From NCBI GenBank assembly GCA_002269645.1, contig NIVC01003209.1, positions 47,186-111,185 on the forward strand: a DNA stretch of 64,000 bases, written 5' to 3'. The notes under the pieces were generated by a model that did no database searches, was not told the origin of the DNA, and saw only the letters and a program-made list of their open reading frames with translations. The translations under genes were made by a program, and so were the position numbers. This document shows, in pieces, positions 1-32,681 of the stretch; the first letter of the stretch is position 1, and each line of letters starts with the position of its first letter. This DNA is from Macrostomum lignano. Lineage: Eukaryota.

Positions 1-415
1 TTTTGAAGTTCATGATTTTTCTATAAAATTTAGGTTTTCGGTATTCTTTATGAAGAACCTTTGCCTCATCAGAACCTAGCCCACTACCACTTAACAACAA
101 ACACTCAACACAATTATTTCCACGTTGATTGTAATTAATTCCTAAACCAAATTTAACTTTAGACTGTAGAATCTTTTTAACCATCCACCTAGTTAATCTT
201 TGGCTCACTGATAATCCTTGTAAATTATCTAATCCTTGAATCATTTTTTGATCTGCTTCATGTTTTAATTTTAATGCTTCCTCGGGTGAGTTCTTGTCAG
301 CATCTCTGTATGCTAAGTCATGATAATATGTTAGCCAATCAATACCGTTAATGGGAATTGAATCGGCTTTTGGAGTACTGTCAGGATTTAATCTCAAATC
401 CAATCGCGTCCCCGG
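1..415 (-). CDS. Exon 2 of PLA2-integrase fusion (runs off the window start)
   Basis: PGTRLDLRLNPDSTPKADSIPINGIDWLTYYHDLAYRDAD contains the PLA2 catalytic HD motif. It continues through HEADQKM and SKVKFGLG, then in frame into EAKVLHKEYRKPKFYRKIMNFK, which resembles the ELHKxxRK start of Polinton retroviral-like integrases. No stop before base 1. Confidence 0.85.
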
Positions 416-752
416 TAGTTTGCCCTCAATCTTTCGAAAGAGGCTGGAGCACACCTTAAGCGGATAAATTACCGCCCACCTCCGTCTGCTCTCTGAACCT
501 TCTCCATATCATATCAACCTATGACTTAGGAGCTTGGCTGCGCATTGACACCATCAGCCCATTGGGCTGCGGACTATGTCCGATGTCTTCAAGCTTGTTA
601 CCTTTGGGAAGAGGAGTTACCTCTGTTCCTTCAAAAGATTTCTCAATTGAAGTGGTACTTGAAGCTGTATGACGGGTTTCACGCAATTTGAAGATGTCGC
701 CACAAATAGTGACTAGCAGTAGCTTTGCTTCTACCACTCAGGCCACGGGTTA
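416..752 (-). ncRNA. Group I self-splicing intron, IC1-like, 337 nt, no internal endonuclease ORF
   Basis: P1: exon CAGGU pairs with IGS GCCUG (743-739), giving a U.G pair at the 5' splice site. P3: CAUCUUC (696-690)/GGAGGUG (483-477). P element AAAUUGCGUGAAA (689-677) and Q element AAUGCGCAGCCAAG (546-533). P5abc with GAAA tetraloop (642-639) and GGUAACAAG A-rich bulge. R element GUUCAGAGAGCAGAC (498-484). P8: GGCGG/CCGCU. S element UAAGGUGUGCUCC (458-446). P9.0: AG/CU. P9: CCUC/GAGG. Removing it restores the PLA2 reading frame. Confidence 0.92.
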
Positions 753-881
753 ACCTGTGAAGTTCATTGATGGTAGGTGTAACTCACCTGTATACCTCCC
801 AGTAGTAAAGATTGGTGGTAAGCTTGTTAATCCTTTTTGTAAGTCTAAAAATCCTCCTTCAAATACTAATTGATTGCTCAT
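753..881 (-). CDS. Exon 1 of PLA2 (parvovirus/adintovirus-type phospholipase A2)-integrase fusion
   Basis: ATG at 881 in an AAAAATG context. Translates MSNQLVFEGGFLDLQKGLTSLPPIFTTGRYTGELHLPSMNFTG, then an immediate TAA. ELHLPxxNFTG is the first half of the viral PLA2 Ca-binding loop. Absent from the supplied ORF track. Confidence 0.85.
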
Positions 882-968
882 TTTTAGTGACTAAAAAACA
901 ATTCTCTATCAATTTAATAATTTCTAAATATTGATCACCATATAAAAAATTTAAACCAAATTCCCCAC

Positions 969-1367
969 TTAACAAAGTAACACCATTATCAAATACCTTT
1001 TGTACGGGGTTTTTAGTAGTATTATTAATTTAGTATTATTAGTAATATCAAATTCGGGATTAACATATTTAAATTCTAATAACTTTTGAATATTTCTAAA
1101 TCTACTTGATGAATTATCTGTATTATCAGAAGATTTTAACTCTAACGCAATTTTTCTTTCGGTATGAATTAAATCAATTTTATTTACTTTTTCAAAACCA
1201 AAATGTTTAATAGCTAATAATTCATAAAGATATCCAAGTCTCATTTGAATTGTTTTAATACGGTTTGCAATTATTAATTCATCTTGAAATATTTTATTTA
1301 GTATTCTGTCAGAATCAACCTTATCACAAATAGGTTTACAAAGACAATCTTTTATCGTATTTTCCAT
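969..1367 (-). CDS. Putative PD-(D/E)xK (restriction-endonuclease-like) nuclease; C-terminal part of the 969-2066 ORF, probably a separate gene starting at 1367
   Basis: QMRLGYLYE...IDLIHTERKIALELKSSDNTDNSSS fits a D-x(n)-E-x-K active site and resembles the Eco47II-like ExKxxxNTxNSS motif. An internal AAAAAAATG start at 1367 follows an almost A/T-only linker. Confidence 0.55.
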   Translation of the reverse strand: MENTIKDCLCKPICDKVDSDRILNKIFQDELIIANRIKTIQMRLGYLYELLAIKHFGFEKVNKIDLIHTERKIALELKSSDNTDNSSSRFRNIQKLLEFKYVNPEFDITNNTKLIILLKTPYKRYLIMVLLC

Positions 1368-3582: not shown

Positions 3583-3601
3583 TTAAATTATATCCTTAAA
3601 A

Positions 3602-4369
3602 ACGGTAAAAGCAAAACACGATAAGATATTTCCAAATGATCCTTTTCTTTGTTTAGTAATTGGTGGGTCTGGCAAAGGAAAAACCCACTTTGTTTATGAC
3701 GTGTTAACAACCGACGGAATGTTAGACTATAATAATTTAATAATTTATACTAACAAACCCCGAATTAAATATTATGAATTTCTTAAACATGGATTAAAAA
3801 ACAAATTAAAAAAAGATGTCTTGTTTAGAATGTTAAGAGCATATGAGCAATATGAGGATGATGACGAACCACGATTTAATCTAGCAGACATTGAGGATTT
3901 ATGTAAAACAATGGCACAAGAGCCGGAAAATAATGCTAACAACCCCCCAACTGTTAAAATATCAACCCGATTATCCTATGATCAAATTCCAGAACATGAT
4001 AAAACACTAATTATTTTTTACGATTGTATTAATGATGGCGATCAAGAATTGCAAAAAGAAATTTTTGTTAGTGGTAGAGGAGATGGAATTGGAGCATTTT
4101 ATCTTACTCAATCCTTTAGAGAATTAGAATCGATTATAAAAAAGAACGCAAGTTGTTGTGTAATGTTTGATTTAGATAACTATGATCTACAAAATATACA
4201 TGCGAGATTTAATCCTGGGTTGGATGTAAAACCATTCAAAAGCATGTGTAAAAAAATTTGGGATGATAGTCAATACAAACACATATATATCAACCCTAGG
4301 TTAGAAAGGAAAAATCGAATCTTAAAAGATCTGATACACTATAATGAGGACGAGGATGATCGGACGTAG
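3602..4369 (+). CDS. A32/FtsK-like DNA packaging ATPase; start codon appears as ACG
   Basis: The frame stays open upstream of the listed ORF and includes Walker A CLVIGGSGKGKT (3650-3685), Walker B-like LIIFYD and the GRxxxIxxFYLTQS motif. There is no in-frame ATG upstream of Walker A; AAAAACG at 3602 matches the AAAAATG context of neighbouring genes. Confidence 0.88.
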   Translation, partial: TVKAKHDKIFPNDPFLCLVIGGSGKGKTHFVYDVLTTDGMLDYNNLIIYTNKPRIKYYEFLKHGLKNKLKKDVLFRMLRAYEQYEDDDEPRFNLADIEDLCKTMAQEPENNANNPPTVKISTRLSYDQIPEHDKTLIIFYDCINDGDQELQKEIFVSGRGDGIGAFYLTQSFRELESIIKKNASCCVMFDLDNYDLQNIHARFNPGLDVKPFKSMCKKIWDDSQYKHIYINPRLERKNRILKDLIHYNEDEDDRT

Positions 4370-4414: not shown

Positions 4415-5210
4415 ATGGCTACAAATTTGGATACTATAAAACAATTGGTAGATCGAACGAGTTCAAAATTTAGTACAACCTTACAGTTTATAATGACAAG
4501 TAGTGAGCAGCGGATTCAATTGCGCGATCCGATAAAACTCGATCAAACCCTAAGTTATCAAGTTGGTTTGATACTATTTTCGGTTTTTAACATGCCCCAA
4601 TTAATTAATTCAACAAATAATCAATTTAGATATTCTAAAGATTCAGGAAGATTCAGGAGCCAATTGGACAACATTTAGCGTTAATCCGGGTGCTTATAGC
4701 TATACCGATTTGAATGCTTATATAGAGGGAGAATTAACAGCTAATGGTGATTGGGTAGCAGGCGCAATTGTTATAGGGGTTGATTTACCATCTGGTAGAT
4801 TCACACTATCCCTAGGATCCGGATATCAGGTTGATTTTACAATTGCATATTCACTCAGAACCATACTAGGATTTAATTCCCGAATAGTTACCACATCAAG
4901 CACCGGCGATACAGTGGGAAACATTGAGGGTGGAGTCAACACAATTAATATAACAACCGACATATCAAACGGTAGTTATATAACAGATGATAAAGGGGTT
5001 TTGGTTCAACGTGGGATTATTTATACAATCCCGTTTCTTGCGGTTCCAATTGGAGAGAAAATGATTGTTGCACCCCAAACCCCAATATATTATCCTTTAA
5101 ATCAATATAGCGTTCAATCAATTTATATTAGGATCGTAGACGAAAGCGATAAGTTAATAAGTTTTGGCGGACAGTCAATAACAGTAATTTTAAGAATAAA
5201 ACAGGTTTAA
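4415..5210 (+). pseudogene. Minor capsid protein (penton), frameshifted
   Basis: PIKLD..YQVGL...NNQFRYSKDSG motif. A 10-bp tandem duplication AGATTCAGGA (4639-4648, 4649-4658) breaks the frame; deleting one copy gives SKDSGANWTTFSVNPGAYSYTDLNAY and joins the two ORFs. Confidence 0.8.
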
Positions 5211-5220
5211 CACTGTAAAA

Positions 5221-5394
5221 ATGGGTAACAACACCGCTTTAAAAAAACAATCAGATAAAGTTCAAAAGGCAAAAGATAATTATGAAATAGAACTAACAAA
5301 ATTTAAACAACTTCAAGCAGAAAAAATTCGAAAGGAGTTGTTAAAACCCACGGATACTAAACTAACTAAAACCAAGAGTTTTTCAGGAACATAA
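5221..5394 (+). CDS. Small basic 57-aa viral protein (MGNNTALKK...)
   Basis: AAAAATG start and exact fit between the penton and protease genes. Gly2 could be myristoylated (inference). Confidence 0.5.
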   Translation: MGNNTALKKQSDKVQKAKDNYEIELTKFKQLQAEKIRKELLKPTDTKLTKTKSFSGT

Positions 5395-5395
5395 A

Positions 5396-5866
5396 ATGAC
5401 TATGAGTTGGGGCGAGTTCAAAAAAAGATATGGAACAGACACAACAAGCAATATTGAATTAACAAATTGGGCGAGACAATTAAAAATAAAACCATTTAGA
5501 TGCGTTATGCGGGATGAGATAAAAGACTTACCAAGATATGGATCTTTCATTGTTAATATAGAAACGACAAAAGAAAATGGTGTTCATTGGTCAGCAGTTT
5601 ATTCAAAACCTAAACTTGTTTATTTTTTTGATTCATATGCACTTCCTCCACTACAGGAAATAAAAGACAAATTTAATCATACTAAAAATCGTTTATGTGG
5701 AGATTATCACGAACAGTTTCAAACCTTTGACAAAAGTTATTGTGGACAAGCGGCGTTATATTTTTTATATCGACTTTCGAATGAAGCTCGTGTAAACCCA
5801 GAAGTATTTAAGACTATCATACAAAGTATGCGACCCTACGGGGCGATTTTAGACTCTATAAAATAG
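5396..5866 (+). CDS. Adenain-like cysteine maturation protease
   Basis: Catalytic pattern GVHW...FFDSY...Q...YCG (His-Asp-Cys with oxyanion Gln), typical of Polinton and adenovirus proteases. Confidence 0.9.
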   Translation: MTMSWGEFKKRYGTDTTSNIELTNWARQLKIKPFRCVMRDEIKDLPRYGSFIVNIETTKENGVHWSAVYSKPKLVYFFDSYALPPLQEIKDKFNHTKNRLCGDYHEQFQTFDKSYCGQAALYFLYRLSNEARVNPEVFKTIIQSMRPYGAILDSIK

Positions 5867-5876
5867 GCAGTAAAAA

Positions 5877-7860
5877 ATGTTATTTTCTGGAACACCCTCA
5901 TGGAATGGAACAACAAGTACTGGTGGTGGTACATCTGGCGGAATAAGTGTTACATTCGGAGATAACCGATATATTAATGAAGATGAAGGTTATAAAAAAA
6001 CTGAAATTGATACTAAACTAAATTTAAAACGGAATGTTGCAGATTCCTATACCAAAACTCAAATCGACGATTCATTAAATCTGAAAAGAGATATAAGTGA
6101 TTCCTATACCAAAACCGAAGTCGATAATTCATTAAATTTGAAACGCAATACAGCCGATTCCTATACCAAAACCGAAGTTGATAATTCATTAAATTTGAAA
6201 CGCAATACCGCTGATTCATATACAAAACAGAAGTTGATAATGGGTTAAATTTAAAAAGAGATATAACTGATTCTTATTCTCGAACTGATTCTGATTCGCG
6301 TTATGTTCAAACCACCGCAACCGGAACCTTAGATATGGATAACAACCGAATTATAAATGTTTCAATTACAACTAGTAATTCGGTAGTTGATAAGAACTAT
6401 GTCGATAATCAGGTTGCTAGTCGTAATGGTAATATTAATATGAATAATTTTAAATTAACAAATTTATTATTTGGGTCAGAGGACGCAGACTCGGTGACTC
6501 TAGGCCAAGTAAATGAGCGAGCTAATGCGACAGACGCCGATATTTTTGCCACACCGCTTACATCAAATACTTCAAATCCTGATGTTGTTCTTACAGCATC
6601 CGAAAATACCAACGATGCTTTTCGAGTTGGAGATGGAAGCCTTGCGACACAATGGTCACCAAATACCGGAACCACAACCAATATGGAAATTCAATTTGAA
6701 TTTTTAGGATATAATCGAAGAATAAATGAATTAAGAATTACAGGCAGCCCAACAATTGATATCCCATCTGGATGGTCGGTGCGCGCAAAAAATGCTGCTG
6801 GCGACGCATGGACGGTATTAGGAACGTCGGGATCACCAATTCAAGCAACTTCATTTGCGTTAACTAATTTAACGGTTAATTTTTGGAAATATTATAGCGT
6901 TTTATTCCCAACTGGTGGGACAGTTACGCAACCTATCGAAGTTCGCTTAATACAATTATTTGAACACCGGGTTGAAATTCAAGATCTTAATTGGCCGAAT
7001 CAAATACTTTCTGCAACCCCGCGAGCATACGTAGATCAGTTAGCAACCACAACTTCAAATGGTAGAATGTCTGCAGGTGATAAAAATAAATTGGATAATA
7101 TTCCCGCGATTGATGCTGCATTATTCGAGACAGTAATTTGCAATTGGACTGGATATCAAAATCCAACAACCGCCGGAGATATATATCCAGTTGGTTCTTT
7201 AATTGGCGACGCTTCTTATATCGATTATCAAAATGGCGCTAGAATTACTCGTGAAACCTCAGGTGTAAGTGGTGCTTTACAATTCAATTTCACACATTTT
7301 CAAAATATATCGGCGTCTTTCTTTTTCCGAGTTGCTTATTCTACAGGAGGTGGTGCAGATGCCGTTTGGTTTTATGCATATTGTCACGAACGCCCAACAA
7401 CCGAAAGTGGGGCAGGTTTAGCAACAGACGCCGGATTGATAGTTTTTGCAAGTGAGTGGCATGATAAATTTGGCCTACTTTGGAGTTCTAAAAAATCAGA
7501 CGGATCAAGCCGCGCGGATGTTAATACTGACGCGGATCAAACGGTAGACTATGCAAATATTGATAACGGCGATTGGCATTTATTTGAAATTAATATTCTT
7601 AATCAAAGGGTTTGGTATCGATTAAATTCATACAATGTTTCAACAGATGCTTATACTCTAATTGGGCAAAATGTTTTACTTATGATAGTGTGAATTGGGG
7701 AACTTTAGATAAATCTGGAACCCTTATGGGTTTTGGTGGTCGAACCGGAGGATCGGATGCTGCACATTTTATTCGTGGCGCTGCCGTTTGTGGTAGCTCA
7801 TCGTTTGGTTATGTTTTTCCATCTACTGGTTATTTAGAAAAACCACCCGTAGCAATATAG
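5877..7860 (+). pseudogene. Fibre/spike-like structural protein: 19-aa repeats, discoidin (F5/8 type C)-like domain and L-type lectin-like domain; two frameshifts
   Basis: About five SYTKTEVDNSLNLKRNTAD repeats and MDNNRIINV..VDKNYVD shaft-like motifs. ASEN..AFRVGDG..ATQWSP..WKYY is discoidin-like. GGADAVWF..DGDWH..GFGGRTGG is lectin-like. One-base loss in an A run near 6225; second frameshift near 7655. Confidence 0.65.
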
Positions 7861-8239: not shown

Positions 8240-8620
8240 AGCAGATAAAAGGGAGCGGGACCATTTTAATCAGCGCAAGGGTCACATGTTAATTAATGTT
8301 GATCGAATAAATTATGATTATGATTTATATAGTAAAAAAGTAAGAAGAGTTTCAAACCATATCAGAAATATGGATTTTTTCAATATTGGTTTTGGAAGTT
8401 TATCGATGTTATGTGTAATCGTTTTAGGTATTTTACAGTCTGTTCCAACTCTTAATTTATCTCAATTATTTTTAGGTATTTCAATTGGTTCAATATCAGG
8501 TTTTGAATTAATCAGAAACTTATCAATACTTTTAGCTATTAAATTATATCTTAAAAAACGAAAGGAAAAATATAAGACCTATAAGACCCATATTATCTTT
8601 AACAAAATTTACTGCTGTAC
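8226..8620 (+). CDS. Viral membrane protein, probably truncated by unrelated downstream DNA
   Basis: Two hydrophobic segments followed by basic KKRKEKYK. Composition changes after ~8620. Confidence 0.5.
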
Positions 8621-8846: not shown

Positions 8847-8998
8847 TTGGGTGGGTAGGTGAGCTGACTATAAATACGAGCTAGCTTCTATTCTTTCTCT
8901 ACCAAAACTTCCAGACCCTTCGCGCCTGCGGCGCGTCGGCGGGTTATAGAGTGTTTATGTGTGTTGGGGAGAGTTGGAAGTGTTGGAAGTGTTGGGTA

Positions 8999-9234
8999 CG
9001 GTACAAAATTGCCAGCAAACCAAAGCGAGCGACGAGAGCGTATTCTCATAATTCAAAGAGAATTAATCGTTGTAAGTGTGAAATGAGTTGATTGACCGAA
9101 ATGAAGCGAGGATGAGCGAAGCGAGTTGAGCGAAGTGAAGACGAGCGATAATGAAGGGAAAACGAGTCATTTCACACTGATAAAGGGTAAAATTGATTGA
9201 ATTATGAGAAGGGTTTGCTGGCCATTTTGTACCG
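8999..9234. mobile_element. MITE, Tc1/mariner-like (TA target)
   Basis: 23-bp TIRs CGGTACAAAAT(T/G)GCCAGCAAACC flanked by TA on both sides. Confidence 0.8.
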
Positions 9235-9624
9235 TATATACTACTAACGCACATACCCTAACGGATGCTAAAAATTGAACAATTATGTCAATGCGGAATA
9301 AAAATGCAATATTCACTCCAACGCGAAAATTTTACAACTTTTTTTTGAATTTAGAAAATATTGTTGAAATCGAAAATAAATATTTTGATAGCAAAATGCG
9401 ATTTAATATATAGGGGAATATATAAAGCACCGGGCTGGAACTCGGAAACCACAACTGATTAAAACTCGAAAAGACAGCGGATTTGAATCTTAAAAAACGA
9501 ATTAGACGCAAAAAATACTCAGCCAAGTGACACGCAAAGGCAGCTCTGCTGGAACAGCGCACAAATGCACAACTCAAGCACAAACTGCGCAGGTCGCAGA
9601 AATCGTCAAAAAAGATTGTCAGAC

Positions 9625-12600
9625 TCACACTAGGACCCAGCCATCGTCAAGAACTTCGCTGCTGCAGTCGCTGGTCGCCTCACTCCGCGCCGGGTCGGGA
9701 GCGCGGGGCTGGTGCGCACGTTTCAGCTTGTTTGCGTGGACCACCCGACCGGTGTCGCCGTCCTTGTAATCGATAGGACGAACCAGGTAGTTCACCGGCG
9801 ACGTTCGCTGCAGCACCCGGAACGGGCCGGTCCAGGGCGCCTGGTGTTTCGGAGCCAGTCCAGTCGTCCTTGAAAGCGCCGCCGGCGGAACGAAAACCCA
9901 TACGAGGTCGCCCACCCGGAATCTGCACCGCTTGGCCTTCCGGTCGTAGTACCGCCGCTGGCGTCGTTGTGCCGTCGCCATCAATCGCCGCACGGAGTCG
10001 TAGGCGCGAAGCAGCTGGTCGCGGTTGTTGGCGGCGAACTGGCCGACTGTCATTGGCGGCTCCGGTGGCCGGTAGACGACGTCAACTGGAAGCGTCATTT
10101 CCCGGCCAGTCAGCAGGCAGTGAGGAGTAAACCCGGTTGTAGCATTGACGCTGCTGCGGTAGGCCAGGAGACAATGCGGCAGCACTTCTTCCCAGTCCTC
10201 CGGCTGAACTGACTGCAGGTGGCAGCGGAGCATCTGGTGCAGAGTGCGGTGGAACCTTTCTACTAGGCCGTCGCACTGCGGATGGTAGCCGGATGTCCGC
10301 GTCTTCTGAATCTCCAGCAGCCGGCACAGGCTCCTGATGACCTTTCCGTCCACGGCCTTGCCACGGTCGGAGTGCAGAATGTGCGGGGCTCCGAAACGCG
10401 TCACCCAGTTGTCGAACAGTGCCTTGACGATGGTGGCCGCTTTCTCGTCGGGGAGTGGCACCAGCTCGACCCACTTGGTGAAGTAGTCGACAATGGTGAG
10501 CAGCCGATCGTTTCCCCGCCGTGACAGTCCAACTTTGACCACGTCGATGCCCACGCGCTGCATAGGAAATCCACTGGCCATAGTCTGCAGTGGAGCTCGG
10601 CGCTGACTCGGTGTCTTAGCGCGCTGGCACACTTGGCAGGACCTTACCGCTAGGCGAACGCTCTCCGCCATTTTCGGCCAGTAGCAACGCTGCTTGAGGG
10701 CTGCCAAGGTCTTGTCCTCGCCCAGATGCCCAAGCTCATGGACCTCCTCGATGAACTCCTGTCTGCAGCGCGGAATCACAGGCACCGGCTTGGACTTCAC
10801 CAGCTTGTTCAGGGCGCCGTCGACGAAACACAGTTCGCCGATCTTCTGTGCCAGAATTAGGCTCTCAGGCGACAGTCGGTCACGTCTGCTGGCGCTGAAC
10901 CTTGTCTTGCCGTTTGACAGCAGGCGAAACACCGGGCCGATGTCTAGATCACGGAGCTGCAGTTCACGCAGTGACTGAGACGCATCTGACAGCGCCTCGC
11001 CTTCCTTCGCTGATTTCGTCTTCGCTGGAGTCCTCGCTCTCGCTTGGCCGCGGTTGAAGCTGCTGCTTCCGCCTTGAGGTGCCCTGACGTTCCGGCTCGG
11101 CGTTGGTCTGGGCAGCCGCAGAGGTAGCCGGCGCTGGTTTGGTTGCGTTGGTTTGCACGGAGTTGACTCTGACTGTGTCGACCCGGCCAGCAGGCTCCGC
11201 TATTGGCACTGGCGCCTCGACCGTCGGCTCCGTCTGGCAGGCGGCTGTTGAAGTCTCGGCTGGCGCCACCGCTGTCGTCCCTGGCCGACACACTCGACAC
11301 TGGCTGGTGCACTTTTGCTCTCGCCGAGAGAGGGCGTCTGCGTTGCCGTGTTGGCGGCCTCGGCGAAAGACGACCTTGAAGTTGAACTCATCGAGCAGCT
11401 GCAGTCATCTGGCCAGCTGGCCTTCGAGCTCTTTGAATGCCAGCAGATAAATGAGCGCCTGGTGATCCACTCGAACGGTGAAGGCGCGCGGCAGCAGGTA
11501 GCTCCGGAACTTCTTAACAAACTCGACAACAGCCAGGAGCTCGCGCCGCGTCACGCAGTAGTTGCGCTCAGCTCTTGACAGGGCGCGGCTGGCGTAGGCG
11601 ATAACCCGCTCTTCGCTCGCCTGCACTTGCGACAGCACCGCGCCGATTGCGCAGTCACTTGCGTCGGTGTCGAGGATGAATTCGGAGCCCGACTCGCTCA
11701 TGTCCGGGAACGCCAGGATCGGAGCTGACAGCAGCGCTTGCTTCAGCTGGTTGAAGGCCGCCTCGGCTTCTGGCGTCCACTCGAAGGGCGTCGGCAGTGT
11801 AAGGCGGCGCAGAGGCTCGGCGATCTTGGCGTATTCGCGCACAAATCTTCGGTAGTAGGAGGTCATGCCGAGGAAGCTCTTGACGTCCTTCGAGCTCCGG
11901 GGCACCGGCCAGTCCCGCACAGCCGCGGTTTTGCCCTCATCGACGGTGATGCCGGTCTTGCTGACGCGGTGGCCCAGGACTAACATGCTGGTATTTGCAA
12001 ATCGGCACTTTGACGGCTTGAGGCGCAGGTTAAACTCGCGCAGTCGCTCCAGAACTGAACGCAGCCGATCGTTGTGCTGGCCGATGGTCTGGCTCATCAT
12101 GATGACGTCGTCAATGAACACCAGACAGGCCTGCCACGTCAGTCCCCGGAGCACCAGCTGCATGAGCCGCTGAAAGGTGGCTGGTGCATTCCGTAGTCCG
12201 AACGGCATCACGTTGAATTCAAACAGGCCTTCATGGGACACAAATGCCGTCTTCTCCTTGTCCCGGTCATTCATCTCGACTTGCCAGTAGCCACTTTCGA
12301 GATCCAGCGCTGAGAAGTAGCTGTTTCCTTCGAGGGCATCCAGAGTGTCATCGATGCGGGGCATCGGGAATGCATCGGGCTTGGTCACCGCGTTCAGCAG
12401 GCGTTAGTCCAAACAAAATCTGGCCGACCCGTCCTTCTTGCGAACCAGAACTATCGGAGAAGCCCAAGGTGACGACGATGGTCGGACGACTCCCTTTGCC
12501 AGCATCTCGTTGACAAGCTCCTTCTGCTGTGCGATCGCTGTGGGAGCCAGCGCCGCAGTCCTTGGCGAATTGGCCTGGCGTCGCCTGTCTCGATCTTGTG

Positions 12601-13548
12601 CTTCAACAACTGCGTGCGGCCTGGGTTGCTGGGGCTCGCGAAGACGTCGCTGAACTCCAGCAGAAGTCGTTGAACTTGATGCCGCTCCTCGGTTGGTATG
12701 TCATCGGCTATTTGCACCTGGTCCTGCCAGGTCGTTGCAGTAGTCGGATCTGCCTCGCTGCCATCACCAGATCCTCCGGCTTGCAGATGCGCCAGGGCTC
12801 GGCCAGACAGCGGGTTGAAGTTGCCGACGATGTCGCCCTCCTTGATCTCGACTGTCTCATCTCTGGTGTTGATTACAGCAACCCCCATTCCGTGGTCAAC
12901 CAGCTTGGACACGCTGCGGCCGATCATCACTTTGGCCGCCTTGCTGCCGCAGACAACGCCTGGTGCCTCCGAGTTCGTCCACGCTGCCGCGCTCGCTGGC
13001 CGCACCGGAATGATCCAGCCATCGCCTGGCTGCAGTCGAACCGTGGCTGCCGCTGCCAGCTTGCAAGTCTGGGCCGCCTGCCTGGATGTCCGCATTGGCA
13101 AGGTGACGCCGAGGCCGTTAAACTCGAGAATGCCTGATCTCAGGTGGATCGAAATGTCAAATTTGTTTAGGAAGTCGCAGCCCAGAATTACCGGTGCGCT
13201 GAGGCAGGTCACTGCCAGGAATCTGTGTCGAAAATGAAGCGGACCAAGAAAAAAACTTATCTCAATTTCGCCCAGCACTGTTGCTTGATTGCCGCCCACG
13301 CCATAGATGGTTGTTGAGCTGGGTCTCAGCTGCCGCCTGAGCCTGGCCGAGTGCACGATGTCGCCGTTGATGCAGGAGATCTCGGCACCGGTGTCGATCA
13401 TGCACGGCCGGCGTTTTCTGAGCATGCGCGAGGTGATGAAGCGCACTTGGTCGGGCTGGCAGCTGGGGCGTGGGGGCTGGGCCGAACTGCTTAGTGCTGA
13501 GAGGGCCGGTGCTGGCCCATTGGACCAGCCCCCCCAACGTTTGGGCAC
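9625..13548 (-). pseudogene. pol: Gypsy pol (protease, RT, RNase H, integrase) with premature stops and frameshifts
   Basis: PR IDTGA; RT LVFIDD; RH DTDASD and VDHQAL; IN HxxGH-CxxC, GIDVV, HSDRG, GLVERFHRTL and GPF motif. In-frame stops near 12404 (D*R) and 11405 (AR*LQ). Confidence 0.92.
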
Positions 13549-14821
13549 CTCCGGCGGATGTGGCCAGGCTGATGGCAGCCGTAGCAGATGGGCACCGCCC
13601 TAGGCTGCTGCTGTTGATGTGCAGCGGCGTCAGCTGATCTCCATGGTGGCGCTGGGGCTGTCTGCGCTCGATGAGCCGCTGGCTGGTGATGTTGTGTCGT
13701 CTGTGGCCCATGCTGCGGTCGGGTTTCTGTCGGTGTTGACTGAGCTGGTGCCGCTGGAGCTGACGCCTCGGCGCTGTGGTGCTGCGACTGGGAATTCATT
13801 ATCTGCCGGGTCTCGCGCACTTGCTGGGCATAGTGCAGGGCCTGATCCGGTGTAGTAAGAGGCAGCTGCATATTAAGCAGCCGCTCCGTCACGTAGTTGT
13901 CGTTCAGCCCTTGAATGAACCGCTCAAGCACAGTCTGCTGGCGACAGTCTTGAGCACCGAGCTCTGGGTAGGCCTTGAACGCGAGTCGCTGGAGGGCAGT
14001 CAGAAAATCCTCGAACCTCTCGTCCCTGCCCCGGCACAGCTGTGAAGCTCGCGCCGAAGTAGCGCAGTGCTGGTGGCACCGCCATGACGAGCGCGAAGGT
14101 GCTGCAGGAGATCTTCATAGCGGGCACCTGGCAGGAACTGCAGTGAAGTCCCAACGGGCTGTCCATGCTGCGCGCACAGTTGGTAGAGCCAGACCTCGTA
14201 GGTAGCGAATGCTGGTCCCAGGTAACTGCTGAGCGTGTTGATCTTGCTGTAGTCACTCAGTCCTTGGTGCCGGCTTAAATACGAAGACACTCGACCCAGA
14301 AAGTCATCGAACGGTTCGGATCCGTTGAAGGGCGCCGGCTTTGGCACCGACGGAAGCTGGATTGCTTGTTGATATACCGGTGCGCACAGGTTGCGGGCGC
14401 CAGCGCCAGGGTGAGTTCCGCCTTGGAGCAACGGAGCCCATGGTTCGGCCATACGGTGCACAGGTCTTGGTGGATGTGTCACTGCAGCTGCCGCAGCTAC
14501 CGCGGAAGGCCTGGTGTCCAGCAGGAATGAGTCTCCCGTCTCCATGTAGTTCGTTGATGGTTGGCCGGGCCCGGGGGGCACTGGCACTTGAGACTGACAG
14601 CAGCGTGCTTCATCGACAGAGATTTGCACAGGATCGAGGTCACGAAGCTCTTGATAGCGCCGCCAGTTCGCCTCCCGTTCGGATTCTGGCTCACTGGTTG
14701 ACGAAGAGGTGTAAGCCGTAGCCGCAGCGGTCGGACGTAAAATATCGCGATTTCTCAGTCTTAGCCGTTGAGGCTCTTCTGCCTCACGTTCTGACCACAT
14801 GATGATCGATGACAGGTGCAA
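13491..14821 (-). pseudogene. gag: Gypsy gag with CCHC zinc knuckle, frameshifted near 14000
   Basis: PAPFNGSEPFDDF major-homology-like region; CYGCHQPGHIRRRC knuckle. Confidence 0.85.
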
Positions 14822-14853
14822 CCTTCGGTCTTTTATTGCTATGAAGAAATTCG

Positions 14854-14870
14854 TCCTGGCGTGGTCGCCA
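14854..14870 (-). promoter_or_regulatory. Primer-binding site of the Gypsy element (probably tRNA-Arg)
   Basis: TGGCGACCACGCCAGGA on the minus strand, 2 nt from the LTR end. The tRNA identity is from recall and is tentative. Confidence 0.75.
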
Positions 14871-14872
14871 AA

Positions 14873-15104
14873 TGTAGCAAGAACGGAGGCAGGACACTAA
14901 ATTTGACTTTGAGCCTTTACCGCCCAATCACAAGCTTGCACAGCTGCCCGCTTACTAGGCACACTAAAGCATAGCCAGTAACAGTTCGAGCTATGATTCA
15001 GCGTTTATTGGACTCACCATCGAGCTAAGGCGATGAAATTCAGCTGATATAAAGTTACGAATATAAAGTATTGAACGAAACGAAAATATACGAGTATTAT
15101 TACA
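14873..15104 (-). repeat. Gypsy 5' LTR (~232 bp)
   Basis: Ends TGTA...TACA; abuts the PBS. The outer boundary is inferred from the terminal dinucleotides only. Confidence 0.65.
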
Positions 15105-15190
15105 TTGCGATTATTATTATTACTTTGCTTTACTTAACACACGCCTCGAGTTGGCACCAATTTAAATTACGAAATTAAGGTTACTTATAC

Positions 15191-21900: not shown

Positions 21901-23709
21901 AACCCTACAACTACAACTACTACGGCGCACAGAAGAACTAACACCAAAACACAGCGCATTCGCGTTTGAAATACGATAGGAATTAGCATACAGTAAAACA
22001 ATAGTAGTAAAGTACGTACAGTAAGAATCGCGGAAATAGAAACTCACTACTGAATAAATACTAACTAAATAATATTCAAGAATGCCGGACACATAATAAA
22101 AAGTGCGGAGATTTAATTGATACATAAAAATACTTTACACAGAGCGTCTCTCGGCGTGCCACTGTCACGATCAACCTGCAGTTGTCAGTGGACTCGTTGC
22201 GGACTGTGTGCTTAATAAATTGAATAGTATACGCTTAATTCCCAAGTGTTTAATCATCAGCAGGTTGAAGCATTCATGAGAGTTCAAGCAGACAACTGAA
22301 ACAATTTAGTTATGTTTGAGTTTTTGCTGTTTTGAACAATTGCTTTGAATGAACCAGTATTTGTGCGCTATTATTCAGCATATTTTTCTTGACCTGGAAT
22401 TTAGTGTGTAACGACACACAGAATATATCCTGTAAAATATTTTACATGTTTGACCAACACAATACCTTAAAGTGCAAGTGCAATCTTTTATGCTGGCTGC
22501 TAGGTGGCGAGTTAAAGTTTATAAGCAATTAGCATTTTAATTCAGTATAAGGGTATTATTTATCATGTGACCTCACTTTTCTAAATTTGCATAGGCCTAT
22601 CATGTTTATGATAGAATTTTTGCACTTTTGGCCCCACCTTTGTGGCTTGAAGTCAATCTATATATCTATATCAATATTTATGGTATAACATTGTTAGTTG
22701 CAAATTTCATTAAATAATATTGTTTATTGTGCACAAAAAATTAAATTACTGAGTAATTCACAAAACTGGGATGCGTGCCCTGCATTCAGGATTCAGTGTC
22801 ATCATATATTAAGTTGTTCCATCATATATTATATAAATGTTTATTGGCAAATATTATATTGGCAATCTTAAAATTTGAGACATTGGGACAAACATTTTTC
22901 TTTAAAATGCACATTTAAAAAAGTTATGCATAGAAATTGTCTTATCTTTATATTAGATGTTCAATTTACCAAAAAGTAGAAGAAAAGCTAAATATAGACA
23001 ACATGAAGCCATCAGTATATTGGATATTAAAAATGACTGCTGCATTATTCTTAATTATACTTTGTTACAAAACAATAACATTTTTAAACTGCTTCAAAAT
23101 ATTCTGATATCTAAATAGAATTCAACAAAGAAGAACTCCCTAGTATTTTACAATCATTGTTTATGTTAGACTTTCTATAGAATAGTTTACTGTGTAAAAT
23201 GCTAGTAATGTATCAAGTCTCTCTATATGATTTACAATTAAGTCAATATAAAGAAAGCAGCAGAATGACCATCTGCTTATATAGTCATTAACTTATATTG
23301 CAAAGCAAAGAGTAAAATTTTGATATTATTCAGATTTCTAATTATCAGATTAATTAAAGTTGCCTTTCATATTCAAAGATCTGCTTTAAAGCTCAATGTT
23401 CTTAGTGCTGTTAGCACCTCATTAATTAAATTAGTAATCACATTTCATTTCATTGTTTTATTTCATTTTGCAGCAATTTGATATTTGCTTTTCTTGGAAT
23501 ACTATATTGGCTAATTTTGTATAAGTGCCTGCTGACTTAAAAAGCTTTGTATTTGGAATAATTAATATCTAGCAAAATAGCAGTTTTATTCAACTTGCCA
23601 AATTGACACTGGTTCAAACTTTGTCATAGTTGAAACTAATCATCATATTGGTAAAATAATCCTACTGGTAAACTGCTCTAATCACAATCCAACTGGCTTA
23701 AAAATTACA

Positions 23710-26700
23710 ATGTACAATGTATCAAAGAGAGCCCAACAACGAGGAATCAAAAGGAAAGTAAATGAATTTTTAACAGAACTAAAGGCTAGTTCAACAAGCA
23801 CAGCACAAGAAGAATATGATAAAAACCCTCAACTAGATGCGTCAGAGCATGAGATCAGCACTTTTTTTGCTAGTGAAGGGATTCTTGATGAAACCAGCTA
23901 CAATTATGATGATACCATTGGCGAATGCAGTGATGATGAGTTCTGTGACAATCAGCCAAAGACTGACATCGCCCAAGAAATCAGGAATTGGGCTGTCTTG
24001 TATAGAATTCCTGGCAATGCACTATCTGCACTATTAAAAATCCTTGTGAATTTTTTCCCATCCTTGCCATTGTCATCAAGAACTCTTCTCAAGACTCCAA
24101 GACACACAACATTCACTGCAATGGGCTCTGGAAAGTTCACTTACTTCTTCGGGTTGCAAGACCTTGTGAACCAAGTGCTGTCTTCATCTGAAAAGCCTCA
24201 GCTTCAAATCAACATTGATGGCCTACCAGTTGGAAGCAACTCGAATAAAGAATTTTGGCCAATTCAGGCTTCCATTGGAAAAGACCCGCCAGCTATAATA
24301 GGTCTGTACTGTGGAGAGCAAAAGCCACCTCTTGAGGAATATTTGAAGGATCTGATTGTTGAGCTGCAAGGTCTTGAAGACTGGTTCGACATCAAGTTCA
24401 TATGCGACGCTCCAGCTCGTGCATTCATTAAATGCATCAAGGGACACGGCGGATATTCCTCATGCGAGCAGTGTACTGCTTATGGCAGATATGTTGGCCA
24501 CGTAATTCTGGAAGACGTTGATGCCCCATTGCGCACGGATGACTCGTTCAGGCAACAGATTGATGAGGAGCACCATACCGGAACAAGCCCCCTGATGGCT
24601 TTGAAGATCAATATGATTACAGCTTTCCCACTGGACTACATGCATCTTGTATGTCTTGGGGTGATGAAGCGGCTGTTGTTGCAATGGGTTGGCGGTCGAC
24701 TGCCAAATCGACTGTCTAATCAGCACGTATTGCAAATTTCTGGTCATATCCTGAATGTTGCCAATTTCATTCCATCGGAGTTTGCTCGAGAACCGAGACC
24801 ACTGAGTGAATGCCGGCGTTGGAAAGCGACTGAATTCCGGTCATTTCTACTTTATTCAGGAAAAGTTGTACTGAAATCAGTTCTGCCCTCCAAGCTGTAC
24901 AAGCATTTCTTGCTGCTGAGCGTCGCTATTTTCTGTCTTTGTAATCCTGAAAGGTGCATTCAGCTGGCAGATTATGCTGCAGAACTCCTTCGGATGTTTG
25001 TGTCCGACTGTGCAAAATTTACGGTGACAATTTCATGAGTCATAATGTGCATTGCCTGCTCCATCTACCATCCTGTGTCAAACACAACGGGTCTCTTGAC
25101 AGTTTTTCTGCCTTCAAGTTCGAAAACAATATGCAATCCATCAAAGCAAAACTCAGAACCAGCAACTTACCATTCGAGCAAGTTTGCAACAGAATTCACG
25201 AAGAAAAAAGCATCAACGTGAATCGATCAGCCGCCAAGTCTACAAAATACATTGGCCTGCATTGGTCAGGTCCGTGTGATAAATAGGCAATTAGATAATA
25301 GCATGCACGGTAAGCAATTATTTAGGCCCTAGACAAACCTACTTGGAGCGCTCGGAGATTTTAAAGCTATTAATCCTAATCGCCTATCGCCGGTCGGCGA
25401 GTTCTACCAGTCTTCTCCAATAGCCGCAGATACAGTACAAGAAAATAAAGAACACGAGGAAACACAAACCGAAAGATTTAGAGAGTGATAATCCTATTTC
25501 AAGAATAACCAACTTGATTGACGGTTTAATTTGATTAGCCGATTTACAAGATTTAGACAAACGACGCGGATAACTAGAGTTGACAAAACGACAATAACGG
25601 TTAATAAATATGATTATATACGCACTGACAAGCGGATCTTAGCTTGAAGAAGAAAAAGGAGGCACCGAACACAGGACCACGGAGAAGACTCCTAACCCCT
25701 GGCCTAAGCCAGAACCTACTCTCAAACGAGAGCCCTGCCGAACCGACCGTTCAACGGAGTACCGACTAAGTTCTATCGGCACTGCCCTTCAGTGTAACAC
25801 TGGGGCCCTCGGGGTCGAGGCCGCGTACTTGATCAGATCCGACAGTCTCTATCTAACCGCGCTTGATAGCGACGACTTCAGACAGGAATTTGCCGTAGAC
25901 GTTACGCCACAAGACTACTGCGGTTGGGCGGGAACAAAGATACGGACCGGGGTGATGAAATCAAAACGCCTCAAAGCGCGAACCACAAGAGGAGGAAAAA
26001 TCGGGCCACCGGCCGGGAACTGGACAAGACAAACCGGGGAAAAGGAGAGAAGCGAGATCCGATTGCCAAAACACACTTTCATATATAGTCAGAGTCACAA
26101 CCCCTCAAAACTCCCCTCAAGCCGGGTGGTGGTCGTCTGGCCGGCCGCTTGCTTAAGCCGAATTGAACTGTGCCCGCGGCGCCGGGTAGAACTGAAACTT
26201 GCCGCGTGCCAGGGTCCAGGCCGGTTCTGATTGGCTGACCGCGCAAAGCTGGGGTTCGCAGACAAACTCAACCCTCCGCTGAGTCACCGATGGCGTCTGA
26301 TTTCTAGCCTGTTTACGCAAAATTGATTCTAACTAACAAGGAAAAAAAGTACACCAAAAACGTATGACTAACTAAAGCAAAATAACAATTCAATAACAAT
26401 ATAGAAACTAATGCAGTCAATTTACAACAAAATACACGCAAAGATGCTCACACTACATCCGCTTCCGAATATTCCCCCTTCGTGCATTGAGCAGTACAGA
26501 GCGATCATTTCGAGCAGGTTCAGACTGTCCAGTGCCGTAAATGATTCCTTTATTGAATGCTCAGAAGGCTGCTACTATAGAATCGTGAATGTCCTGCAGG
26601 TGGAGAATGAGTCCAGCTTGGTGTGTCGCCGATTCAAAACCAAAGAGTCATTCTTCGCATACCCTGTTGAATCAGAAAAGATGGGCATCCATCTTGTGTC

Positions 26701-26809
26701 GAATTTAGATTTAGTTAACCTCTACACACTACGAATTACAGAGGTGAAGAGAAAGTTCTACGGACTGCCCGTCGACAACAAGGTTGTCCTCACACCCATG
26801 TTTCTGTAA
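23710..26809 (+). pseudogene. CACTA/EnSpm-type DDE transposase, with a frameshift near 25015 and a solo-LTR insertion
   Basis: NIDGLP..EFWPI, CDAPARAF..GHGGYSSCEQC, LDYMHLVCLG, WKATEFRSFLLY and HNVHCLLHL..SAFKFEN motifs. Removing 25275-26461 restores HWSGPLPNIPPSCIEQY. Confidence 0.9.
25275..26457. mobile_element. Solo LTR (1183 bp) nested in the transposase
   Basis: Ends TGTG...TACA with a 4-bp TSD TCCG (25271-25274, 26458-26461). The host reading frame is restored on removal. Confidence 0.85.
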
Positions 26810-26822
26810 AACATCGTTGCAG

Positions 26823-28364
26823 ATGCACTTTTGCGTTGTGGAATTTGCGGACAAGTCAGTTGAATATGTCAGCGAGGCCTGGCTCGTAGGACGTACCCGC
26901 TGTTACTGGCCACCGATAACTGTAGCGAGGGCCATTAAGTTAAGGTCGAAGCACGCTGCACCGAATTCAGAATGGGAGCTACATGACATTAAAATTTTGT
27001 CGATGACAACCAACGAATGTACGGCACGCCGACGACTCAACCGGGCATCATGCGGCGCAGAAGAGCTGACAACCGATGCTGAGGCAACAGCCAACAGGAA
27101 GCGCACTCAACCGATCCGCTTAATCGATGGGCCTGCTCAGCAAAACAAAAAAAGAACAAAGACGGCAAGGATCGTGGCAGACTCAGATCTAGAGTCATGC
27201 GATGGATATGACGATGATGCTGATCTGCCACCTCCATTGCCAAATTTTCGTGAGTACGCACATTTGAAGTTCGATCTTTGAATTGGCTAAAACAAATTTG
27301 GGTAAATCAAATGTTTTAAAACTGTTCATTCTTCTGCAGCCCACATTAATGAGACGCCCCGAGCAGCGAGAGGCGGACGCGAAGAGTCAGTGGGATCGTC
27401 CAGCTGTGCAGCTGTTCTGTTTGAGGCAGCGCATTTGAATTCGTGCAGGCAGGATGACGCTGCGCAGCAGACGCAGACGCCGGCTGCTGCTGCCTACCCC
27501 GCTCAACAGTCGAACCAGACTCCCCTCTCGAATGCTTTGGGAATAACGCCGGCAAACAGGCCGCTCTCAGCTGTGCGACCTCCCGCTCCACCGTCAGCTG
27601 CTGCCTCCGCTGCCGCAAGTGAACCCAGACTGGCAGTTGCGCCAGATTGTGCTGCAGGCGCGAGCACGCGTAAGTGTTCACAGATTCATTTGAAATGCTG
27701 TTGTTGTGAGAACTAAAATCATGCACGTGTACACCAATGCCATTTTTGCTAAAGTACAAGAGCACTGTAGTGTGATACCCATGATGAAAATTCCCGCCTT
27801 GATGTTTCAGCATTCGAGAAGATTGTTATGAGGGAACTGGCAGCCATCCGTCAATACGTTGAACGGGTTGAACGCACGGTCTCCGCGATCGCGTCACGAA
27901 AGAGCGTCGCGGCTCCGAATCTGCCTGTCAACTTGCCGTGCTCGGCAGAAGACATGGCAGAACTAGTCCAGCATCTGGAAGAAAATCCAGCGGATGCAGA
28001 AGCGCTCGTGAGTGCATCGGCGTTCCTGTTTTTCTTCAATTCTTCTGTTGCGTGTAAAATAAAAAAAATTAGACAATTTTGCGTAACTGCTTCACTTGCA
28101 TTACAGGAAGGACAGATGGCCTGCATTGGTGGCGGCAGCACCCAGGATGCAGTGCGTCGCATTTTGCGCCGGCTGCTGGCTCCGCCGGCTATGGCGAGTT
28201 TTAGTTTCGCAGGACGGCGAGAGAAAGCGGCGTTCAAGGACAGCATCCTGTGGACAATCGTGCGAGGTGCAACGCTACGCAGCGTCAAGGCGAAGGAGAA
28301 GGAGATAGAAGCCGCTGTAAAGGAGGTGCTAAAGCATGCAAATGACCCGAATCGCGCTCGTTAG
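26823..28364 (+). CDS. Spliced transposon accessory gene with a C-terminal DUF4806/BEN-like domain; join(26823-27249,27340-27669,27811-28007,28107-28364)
   Basis: Three GT-AG introns (GTGAGT, GTAAGT, GTGAGT donors) whose phases give one continuous frame. N-terminal FCVVEF..WL..CYWPP and C-terminal GGGSTQDAVRRILRRL..FSFAGRREKAAF motifs are typical of CMC-associated ORFs. Confidence 0.75.
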
Positions 28365-30998: not shown

Positions 30999-32681
30999 CA
31001 GTGCTGCCACTACCTGCGTTTTTACGTTTTTTTAGCTCTGGCTCTGCGTTATGCGATAATTTTTTCACCAGACGTAATATCTGCGTTTTTTATTATTTAC
31101 ACCGTACCCATCCTTTTTCATGATTATAAATAATAAGCCCAGTTGGCAGTCAAATTTTGACTATGTTTCATACTTGTCTTTTTAATTTTAAGTAACGTTT
31201 TTAGCATCTAGCAGTCAGCACAGTGATCATTTGTTTTATTTAATGCTGTCACTCTCACTTAAAGCACGAATTAATTAATCCTTTCGATGACAGCCAGCTG
31301 CGAGTCGGCGAGGAGACTCAAATTCTACTCCGCGACCCAGGAAGACGAGAATCTCAAAACGCACTATTCTTTCTTAAGGTTCGTGCATTCTATCAAGCCT
31401 TTGCTGCCTACCTAGCAACTGAACTTCCATTTAGGAAGTTCATTCTACGGCGCCTGCAAGTTCTCAATCCAGGCAAACTGCTTGACGAAGAGAGTCCCGA
31501 CCTTGCTGTTGCGCTGGCCAAGCAGCTGCCAACAGTAATACGCCAGAACGAACTTGACTCTCTTTGTCAAGAAGTTCAGCAGCTGCGTCTTCAAGGGCAC
31601 CTTGTCGAAAGCTACCTAGCACCAGCACTTTTCTGGCGTCAGGTCGCCAATAAGAAGAACATCTTCGACGAGCCAGCGTTCCCCTTGATGACTAAGTTAG
31701 CACAAGCTGTCATGACCTTCTTCCCCGCCAATGCCGATCCAGAACGTGCTATAGGGAAGTCAAGTGACATCGATGATAATTCAAAGCAAAACGCAATGGC
31801 TGACACCACTCGTCTAGCTCATCTTCGAGTTCATAGCTTCCTTTGCTCAACTCAGCAACTGTGCAACGATGCGAACATCAGTCGGAACCTGATTGATCTC
31901 GGGATCAAAGCACGAGCCAAGTATTTCGCCCACCAGGCAGAAAAGAAAAAGCGTAAGGCAACAGAAAAGGCTCAGGCAGCTGCTGCAGCGCAAGCGGCCA
32001 AGGATGCTGAGGCAGCAAAGCGCGAAATGCAGCGCCTAGAGCAAGCAACGAAGATTCGCCAGCGAGAGATGGCTGCTCATGACCTCGAGCAGGAAGCCAA
32101 TCGAAAGGTCACCGAAGCAGAGTTGGCGCTGCAGAAGGTCGCTGAGCACCTAAAGCAAGCGCAGCGTGAGCGGGAGGCTGCCCAGAAAGCCAAAATGGCA
32201 GTGGAAAAGAACCGCCAAATGCTAGACCAACGTGCTTTTGATGGGGGCGGAGCTACGAAGCGCAAGTCCTCTAGTCAAGCCAATGTGGACCAAGAATCCA
32301 TCGCCGAGAAGCTTCCACCAGCAAGAAGCCCTGTGACCATGACAATGTAGTACAATAAATTGATCTGACTGTCTATGACGGATAAACTTTCACATTGTTC
32401 TTTAAGTACAAGCAACTTTTTAGCAATCAATTTTTTATTAAAGTCAATTCATTACAGCTATTTTTTACCGTTCATTATTCTACTGCACTGTGTTGTGTTT
32501 TTTGTTTGTTGTGTTGCCTATCTGGAATCAAGGAAAAAATTAAATAGAAAATCCGAATTTAGCGTTAAAAATTTCTACATTCAAATATCTTTTAGTGACG
32601 GGAGGTAAAAACAATCATAATTTTAAAATGCGTTTTTTTCCTTGTGCGTTAATTTTTTTACAATATAGAGTGGCAGCACTG
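30999..32681 (+). mobile_element. hAT transposon, internally deleted (1683 bp)
   Basis: 13-bp TIRs CAGTGCTGCCACT and 8-bp TSD GCCCGCAG. Retains only a C-terminal transposase remnant. Confidence 0.9.
31290..32350 (+). pseudogene. hAT transposase C-terminal remnant (dimerisation domain) with a charged coiled-coil tail
   Basis: FYQAF..YL..ELP and FWRQV..FPLMTKLAQAVMTFFPANADPER motifs. Confidence 0.7.

Follow-up and report, generated by a model that had tools for sequence, protein, structure and literature searches.

A Polinton in the nuclear genome of Macrostomum lignano carries a group I intron in its fused PLA2-integrase gene. Its insertion point is the boundary of the Gly and Pro codons in the calcium loop of PLA2, where it splits a GGN|CC sequence. 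We propose that it is kept and spread by hiding this calcium-loop GGNCC from a nuclease of the same element family, itself predicted to cut GGNCC, and that it likely splices constitutively; we give this reading a probability of about 0.58. Observed directly are the intron and its borders, the gene fusion, intronless alleles, a nuclease gene beside or inside the intron, a near-absence of GGNCC, and selection on exons and RNA pairs. The window is the whole stretch of DNA that was analyzed (64,000 nt; contig NIVC01003209.1, positions 47,186 to 111,185), and coordinates without a locus name refer to it (Table 1).

Table 1. Features of the Polinton copy and its PLA2-integrase gene.
Feature	Position	Strand	Remarks
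Exon 2	1..415, plus 243 codons in the left flank	minus	PLA2 with His-Asp and Asp, linker, rve integrase with D-D-E
Last intron base	416	minus	A (canonical G); borders from intronless copies
Group I intron	416..752, 337 nt	minus	IC1-like, no ORF; RF00028; borders from intronless copies
P7	447..491	minus	491-487 with 451-447; non-canonical letters, G-binding G-C pair kept
30-nt insertion	555..584	minus	two hairpins at the P5 edge; private to the window copy among 12 aligned
P1	739..757	minus	guide 743-739 pairs with the last exon bases, 757-753; 5' splice site marked by a U-G wobble
Exon 1	753..881	minus	encodes the N-terminal 43 aa, up to the middle of the PLA2 calcium loop (NFTG)
Free-standing Eco47II/EcoO109I-like nuclease gene	881..1367	minus	just upstream of PLA2-integrase; frameshift near residue 110
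Probable double-jelly-roll major capsid protein, 493 aa	2101..3582	plus	homologue P0126 (E 6e-17) carries PF21738; no direct Pfam match
A32-like packaging ATPase frame	3586..4369	plus	no ATG ahead of Walker A here; sister copies match PF04665
Probable penton (split, two frames), cysteine protease, fibre-like genes	4415..7693	plus	ORFs without Pfam match
Sole GGNCC of the 11.3-kb element	8258..8262
Right terminal inverted repeat and 6-bp target-site duplication	8913..9251		333 bp, 2 differences from the left repeat, AGT-type end

From an ATG at 881 on the minus strand, 43 codons run in the same frame as the intronless copy L047 to ...MNFTG at 753. They are followed by an in-frame TAA (752-750), so that unspliced RNA would yield only a 43-aa peptide, as the sequence-only reading had noted. 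That reading also had the PLA2 frame run on into an integrase without a stop, and the continuation holds: from 415, exon 2 is open for 381 codons, 138 inside the window and 243 in its left flank, through the full DDE core. Beyond base 1 we met neither a stop nor non-integrase sequence, and the left-flank part matches rve PF00665 with 33 bits (cut-off 32.6). The predicted joined product of the window copy is 424 aa long. Its natural counterpart, the intronless L047, is a single 424-aa ORF in which the profile search found PF08398 (31.6 bits) together with PF00665. Both domains share one uninterrupted frame in 60 of the 120 homologues listed (the best 120 of 366), and all 60 retain the PLA2 His-Asp and Asp and the integrase D-D-E. 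Judged by these homologues, the PLA2-integrase fusion is old and usually intron-free. Gly-Pro stands at the calcium loop in 54 of the 60, with nothing inserted between the two residues. An integrase start independent of splicing was sought as well, but a Met precedes the rve core in 3/60 homologues, and no conserved separate start was found. Two further candidates for splice-independent starts, an in-frame GUG in the intron tail of the window copy and an internal Met within the PLA2 helix (53/60 homologues), are both without support. The private codon changes in exon 2 of the window copy comprise 15 non-synonymous and 10 synonymous ones, a ratio that counts against the proposal.

The intron matches RF00028 over 761-425 with 50.7 bits (cut-off 50; E 1.2e-11) in a targeted scan; the whole-window scan at the gathering cut-off missed it. 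Three copies of the gene elsewhere in the genome naturally lack the intron (L047, L050 and L051) and set its junction at 753|415. The P3-P8 core with its P, Q, R and S elements is present and all core helices form, as does a P5abc extension with P5a, a P5b with a GAAA loop, and P5c; the subgroup is IC1-like by its motifs. The U-G at the 5' splice site in P1 recurs in 12/12 aligned copies, and the G-binding G-C pair of P7 (491-447) is retained in 30/30. Helix pairing holds in 99.2% of cells across 12 copies, against 37-50% in slid controls, for a structure drawn on the window copy, which favours that copy. Two-sided changes affect 6 of 80 pairs in these 12 copies, four of the six being one P2 swap; compensatory pairs occur in P2, P3 and P9, and in A-ending copies too. 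Divergence in the intron is 0.05, compared with 0.17-0.31 at synonymous sites. By these comparisons the fold of the intron RNA is under selection. Of 92 matches, 69 open the intron with TAA, 18 with TAT and 5 with TAC (counted by eye), and a stop lies within five codons of the 5' splice site in all 30 copies examined, whether TAA opens the intron or not. On the sequence evidence, the window intron is group I by each feature examined save its terminal G; since G-ending sisters exist (20 of the 100 listed), the family is a group I member and the window copy a variant.

Other readings of the borders were discarded. A 3' site at the G at 425, nine nucleotides upstream, would add three residues; it falls in the P9 stem, and no such insert appears in the intronless copies or in the 60 homologues. 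A spliceosomal reading (GT near 754, AG at 425) is out of frame. Five of the six matches of a pattern search, which was used toward natural intronless copies, proved to be chance.

The element itself is an 11,301-bp Polinton copy that extends from the left flank to 9245. The names penton, cysteine (adenain) protease and fibre-like at 4415..7693 are tentative, being given by position and motifs. Protein-primed PolB was found in a sister copy (PF03175, 67.8 bits) and nowhere within the 11.3-kb window copy, which is thus a non-autonomous member. Judged by its frames, the window copy is also partly decayed, with a frameshifted nuclease, an ATPase frame without an ATG and a split penton-like gene. 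The intron-bearing family numbers more than 100 copies in the M. lignano genome, which also contains Wnt genes, as befits an animal host. At most element genes an A-run lies directly 5' of the ATG (881, 1367, 2066, 2101, 4415, 5396, 5877 and 8226). This presumably resembles the gene starts of cytoplasmic DNA viruses, and may indicate transcription by a helper virus. To the right, the Polinton is adjoined by a GC-rich Ty3/gypsy-like retroelement (9300-14870; RT, RNase H, integrase), and a 312-bp repeat at 14873-15185 recurs just left of the Polinton (L031:7315-7626). ORFs at 23581-28364 and 31244-32350 resemble remnants of DNA transposons, the two examined being without Pfam match, and long CT-rich simple repeats lie past 29300.

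Copies of this gene differ in what occupies the calcium-loop site. The three intronless alleles are intact, and L047 is 97-98% identical to intron-bearing copies over 60 nt on each side of the junction, a near-identity that fits exact intron loss or recent homing alike. A second intron type of ~324 nt uses the same 5' site (L054, L055, L057, L058, L083, L085, L086 and L089-L092). Its catalytic core differs (RF00028, 34.7 bits) and its P2 and P5abc are common with the window type, a combination that suggests that ribozymes have exchanged domains; joined at its in-frame 3' end, the exons would lack the Pro and gain one residue. A third type of ~880 nt, found at the same site in a sister element family, has a canonical core, a terminal G and an internal ORF. 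In this family (L059-L070, L094-L100) the ORF is Eco47II-like, lies in P2 of the intron and reads on through the ribozyme core, and all 3' ends that were read finish in G (16/16). Three intron types at one site point to the site, and away from a regulatory RNA.

The free-standing nuclease and the intron ORF of the sister family are ~67% identical. Both match PF09553 Eco47II, the intron-encoded form with 30.5 bits, above the cut-off. A PDB sequence search with the nuclease gave no match. For the predicted fold of an intact sister nuclease (pLDDT 86), the best structure was EcoO109I (Z 9.2, next 7.0; 162 residues aligned, rmsd 3.6). EcoO109I recognizes RGGNCCY. Homologues of Eco47II are linked with GGNCC in the accessible part of PMC10305163. 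By profile match and predicted fold, the element nuclease is therefore like Eco47II and EcoO109I; with 168 aa it is smaller than EcoO109I, its cutting is a prediction, and no partner methylase was seen in the element. The scanned element ORFs included no methylase family, several of them being without assignment.

In 12/12 sister-family loci read, the nuclease lies inside the intron, and in 9 it is intact. Three outside proteins contain the same nuclease with tails that read through an intron core. Eighteen nuclease loci were examined among 104 matches: 16 have the split site, two have no PLA2 gene and none has an unsplit site, although 0/16 nuclease-bearing copies against three intronless ones are too few for a test. 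The slot before the PLA2-integrase gene (881-1367 in the window; compared across L001-L058) is interchangeable and holds an Eco47II-like gene, an Endo VII/HNH-like gene or a 155-aa acidic ORF (L007). A back-translation search of viral and metagenome contigs found no related PLA2-integrase or nuclease loci.

A Gly codon followed by a Pro codon invariably gives GGNCC, and on these comparisons the calcium-loop Gly-Pro is the one GGNCC site that the family cannot lose. Elsewhere the sequence is nearly gone: the window element has 1 GGNCC where 12 are expected, three sister copies have 0 against 9.5-10.9 expected, and the junction of L047 is the only GGNCC in ~11.6 kb of element. When ORF codons were shuffled, the window copy stood at 1 against 7.8 expected (4/300 shuffles), and two PolB-bearing sisters and the sister family at 0 against 11.6, 16.2 and 10.3 (0/300 each). 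Under a shuffle of synonymous codons, the window copy was non-significant (1 against 3.2, 47/300), and the two sisters and the sister family gave 3, 2 and 2 of 300. The ORFs of all four sets lack Gly-Pro altogether, where 4.3-9.1 would be expected. As a control, GGNCC was counted in seven other PolB regions, limited to ORFs with a minimum length of 150 aa and a GC content no higher than 0.47; this filter nearly emptied two of the seven. Depletion also shows in two regions (3 observed, 10.4 and 12.7 expected), and five lack it or are too small. CCNGG is low as well in one sister copy.

We propose that the nuclease of the element family would cut GGNCC in rival genomes. Its carriers would survive without a methylase, as their other sites would be lost and the obligatory one masked by the intron. 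Intronless rivals, once cut, would be destroyed or else repaired from the carrier, which would amount to collaborative homing, and the intron-encoded nuclease of the sister family may be the composite end state. Splicing, at a terminal A as well, would restore the PLA2-integrase enzyme, and the ribozyme may derive from giant viruses. Inside the host nucleus, an enzyme that cuts a 5-bp site would be lethal if it were neither silent nor excluded, which counts against the GGNCC-cutting view. The fullest version of the proposal is a methylase-free restriction weapon in an animal provirus family: a 5-bp cutter with self-immunity by site purging, a giant-virus-derived ribozyme masking the unlosable site, and most ribozymes switched to a terminal A yet splicing. 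We put this version forward tentatively, at rather less than even odds.

The proposal depends on what the terminal A does. Among the 100 copies listed of 105, the intron ends in A in 80 and in G in 20 (counted by eye). A terminal G is a requirement for step 2 of group I splicing according to the available text of PMC3984707, and the A-ending introns might splice poorly or not at all. Such copies would then be non-autonomous passengers that receive PLA2-integrase in trans from copies ending in G or lacking the intron, and recent recombination would account for their clean exons. A- and G-ending copies do not differ in the P7 core, so that no compensation for the terminal A is visible at the G-binding site, and the readable sister-family introns all finish in G, as noted above. 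Trees of the copies disagree, indicating extensive recombination among them, and purifying selection on the exons may therefore partly predate the terminal A. The window copy, with no PolB and several broken genes, would suit a passenger. Contigs from runs guessed to be RNA, which may be DNA, bridge unspliced exon-intron borders, the A-ending 3' border included. No exon-exon joint was listed when contigs of 7 such runs (6 studies) were compared with the window and a majority-type copy, in assemblies that drop rare forms, so that the absence speaks neither for nor against splicing. A contig that stops at the 5' splice site is explained by a variant 30 nt upstream. Against poor splicing stands the condition of the exons. 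Exon 2 is open in 17/23 A-ending and 6/7 G-ending copies, and dN/dS in the PLA2 part is 0.052 in A-ending copies (10 distinct copies) and 0.054 in G-ending ones; exon 1 has 0.17 among A-ending copies. This equal purifying selection argues for splicing at A. At up to 6 codons (18 nt) from the terminal A, changes are exclusively synonymous in 22/23 copies, and four codons from it five different Arg codons are in use. The terminal A is preceded by CT in 80/80 copies, whereas the G follows CT, CA, CG or AT; an invariant CT is expected if A-ending introns need P9.0 pairing. With the majority of copies ending in A as well, we infer that A-ending introns splice well enough for protein, and we consider the passenger explanation unlikely. 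As a separate observation, A-ending introns mostly precede CCC and G-ending ones CCG, the window copy (A, then CCG) being an exception; the difference may reflect linkage, or avoidance of a competing in-frame G.

Even if the introns splice, masking is not the only possible reason for their presence. The intron could be an ordinary parasite, spread either with the help of the Endo VII/HNH-like gene of the slot or through reverse splicing at a conserved motif; the loss of GGNCC would then be otherwise caused, e.g. by use of the nuclease against other viruses, and its overlap with the insertion site incidental. Introns favour conserved motifs, partial GGNCC loss is seen in the two unrelated Polinton regions of the control, and the Endo VII/HNH-like gene fills the slot in most intron copies, so that it could be the homing agent. 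However, the same gene fills the slot in 3/3 intronless copies, which it should cut, the gene inside the intron is Eco47II-like and not HNH, and three intron types share the site. We regard this explanation as somewhat less probable again than poor splicing. The sequence-only reading had gone in another direction, with splicing gating both enzymes as a possible control point between entry and integration, and with functional introns retained by force of it. Part of this stands: an intron-bearing copy does need splicing for the fusion protein, and the fold is under selection. Any protein gene split by a group I intron ordinarily depends on splicing in this way. The control point does not follow, because PLA2 and integrase form one chain, which splicing turns on together, leaving no choice of entry versus integration; and for the retention, the nuclease and GGNCC provide a better explanation, one at the level of DNA. 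A regulated gate, perhaps throttled by a slow A-ending 3' site, would gain from the frame depending on splicing, from the terminal A being common, which may lower output, and from a ligand-controlled domesticated group I intron known in C. difficile (PMC3984707, in the portion available). It is opposed by the intact intronless alleles in the same genome, by the 60 uninterrupted homologues among the 120 listed, by the variable TAA at the intron start (69/92) and, again, by three different introns at one site. The homologues (60) tolerate no insert at the junction, so that no alternative splice outcome is supported, and a search of 1-1200 for an aptamer or other regulatory RNA gave no further convincing Rfam match. 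The switch is the least supported part of the sequence-only reading, and we hold it to be very improbable.

Six metagenomic viral contigs from outside this genome contain an exact match to 22 nt of the unusual P7/J8-7 core, two of the six being one record. Five of these contigs carry RNA-polymerase genes (Pfam-confirmed for one), and the three records with clear borders end in G; in the sixth, the core lies near a giant-virus capsid gene with several further introns. The RNA-polymerase genes (L119-L122, L124) encode the largest subunit, with an intron at the NADFDGD motif that has the same core and an ORF of 245-297 aa inside. In L123:1-5100, six RF00028 matches surround the giant-virus major capsid gene, and an HNH/NUMOD gene on the other strand flanks the shared-core intron. 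That giant-virus introns have this core too hints at a hitherto unknown helper virus of M. lignano.

Cbu.L1917 of Coxiella is reportedly a natural group I intron that, like the window intron, has A in place of the terminal G and retains splicing. It is a single bacterial rRNA intron, whereas the M. lignano family is multicopy and polymorphic with A in the majority. That Cbu.L1917 is spliced is stated in the accessible text of PMC4990558. In the portions available of PMC12220804, RF00028 introns 309-376 nt long interrupt, as here, a protein gene of an integrated Polinton-like element; these are limited to Paulinella, Desmodesmus and Rhodomonas and lie in a short gene before the capsid gene, and reports of RF00028 introns concern Polinton-like viruses of protists only. 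The present introns differ in their host, an animal, in lying in a PLA2-integrase gene, in their terminal A and in the linked nuclease. For Bodo saltans virus, as far as the available text of PMC5871332 goes, introns in essential genes are proposed to mask nuclease targets in competition, and ORF-less introns rely on trans-homing, both much as proposed here; its enzymes are HNH or GIY-YIG, whereas ours is a relative of 5-7-bp restriction enzymes accompanied by genome-wide site loss. Collaborative homing in phages, in the accessible part of PMC3984707, involves a free-standing nuclease beside an ORF-less intron, or a composite, and both states occur in this genome; the differences are a eukaryotic provirus, a short predicted site and cutting that is predicted. 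The Polintons and adintoviruses of PMC8502044, from the sections available, are alike in their parvovirus-like PLA2, rve integrase, capsid module and inverted repeats; there PLA2X is a gene of its own with a pX-like tail and no intron is mentioned for it in those sections, whereas here PLA2 is fused to rve. Our literature search found no report of a group I intron in an animal Polinton; supplements, the tables of PMC12220804 and the maps of PMC8502044 may list such an intron or fusion.

Nuclear group I introns have been described as confined to rRNA genes (PMC10964413, in its accessible part). This range is widened by a ribozyme that is under selection in a nuclear provirus of an animal, where it sits in a protein gene and is present in more than 100 copies. 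The natural A- and G-ending alleles, with their identical core, lend themselves directly to testing the strictness of the terminal-G rule. Should the nuclease cut GGNCC, the intron would be the immunity half of a restriction system.
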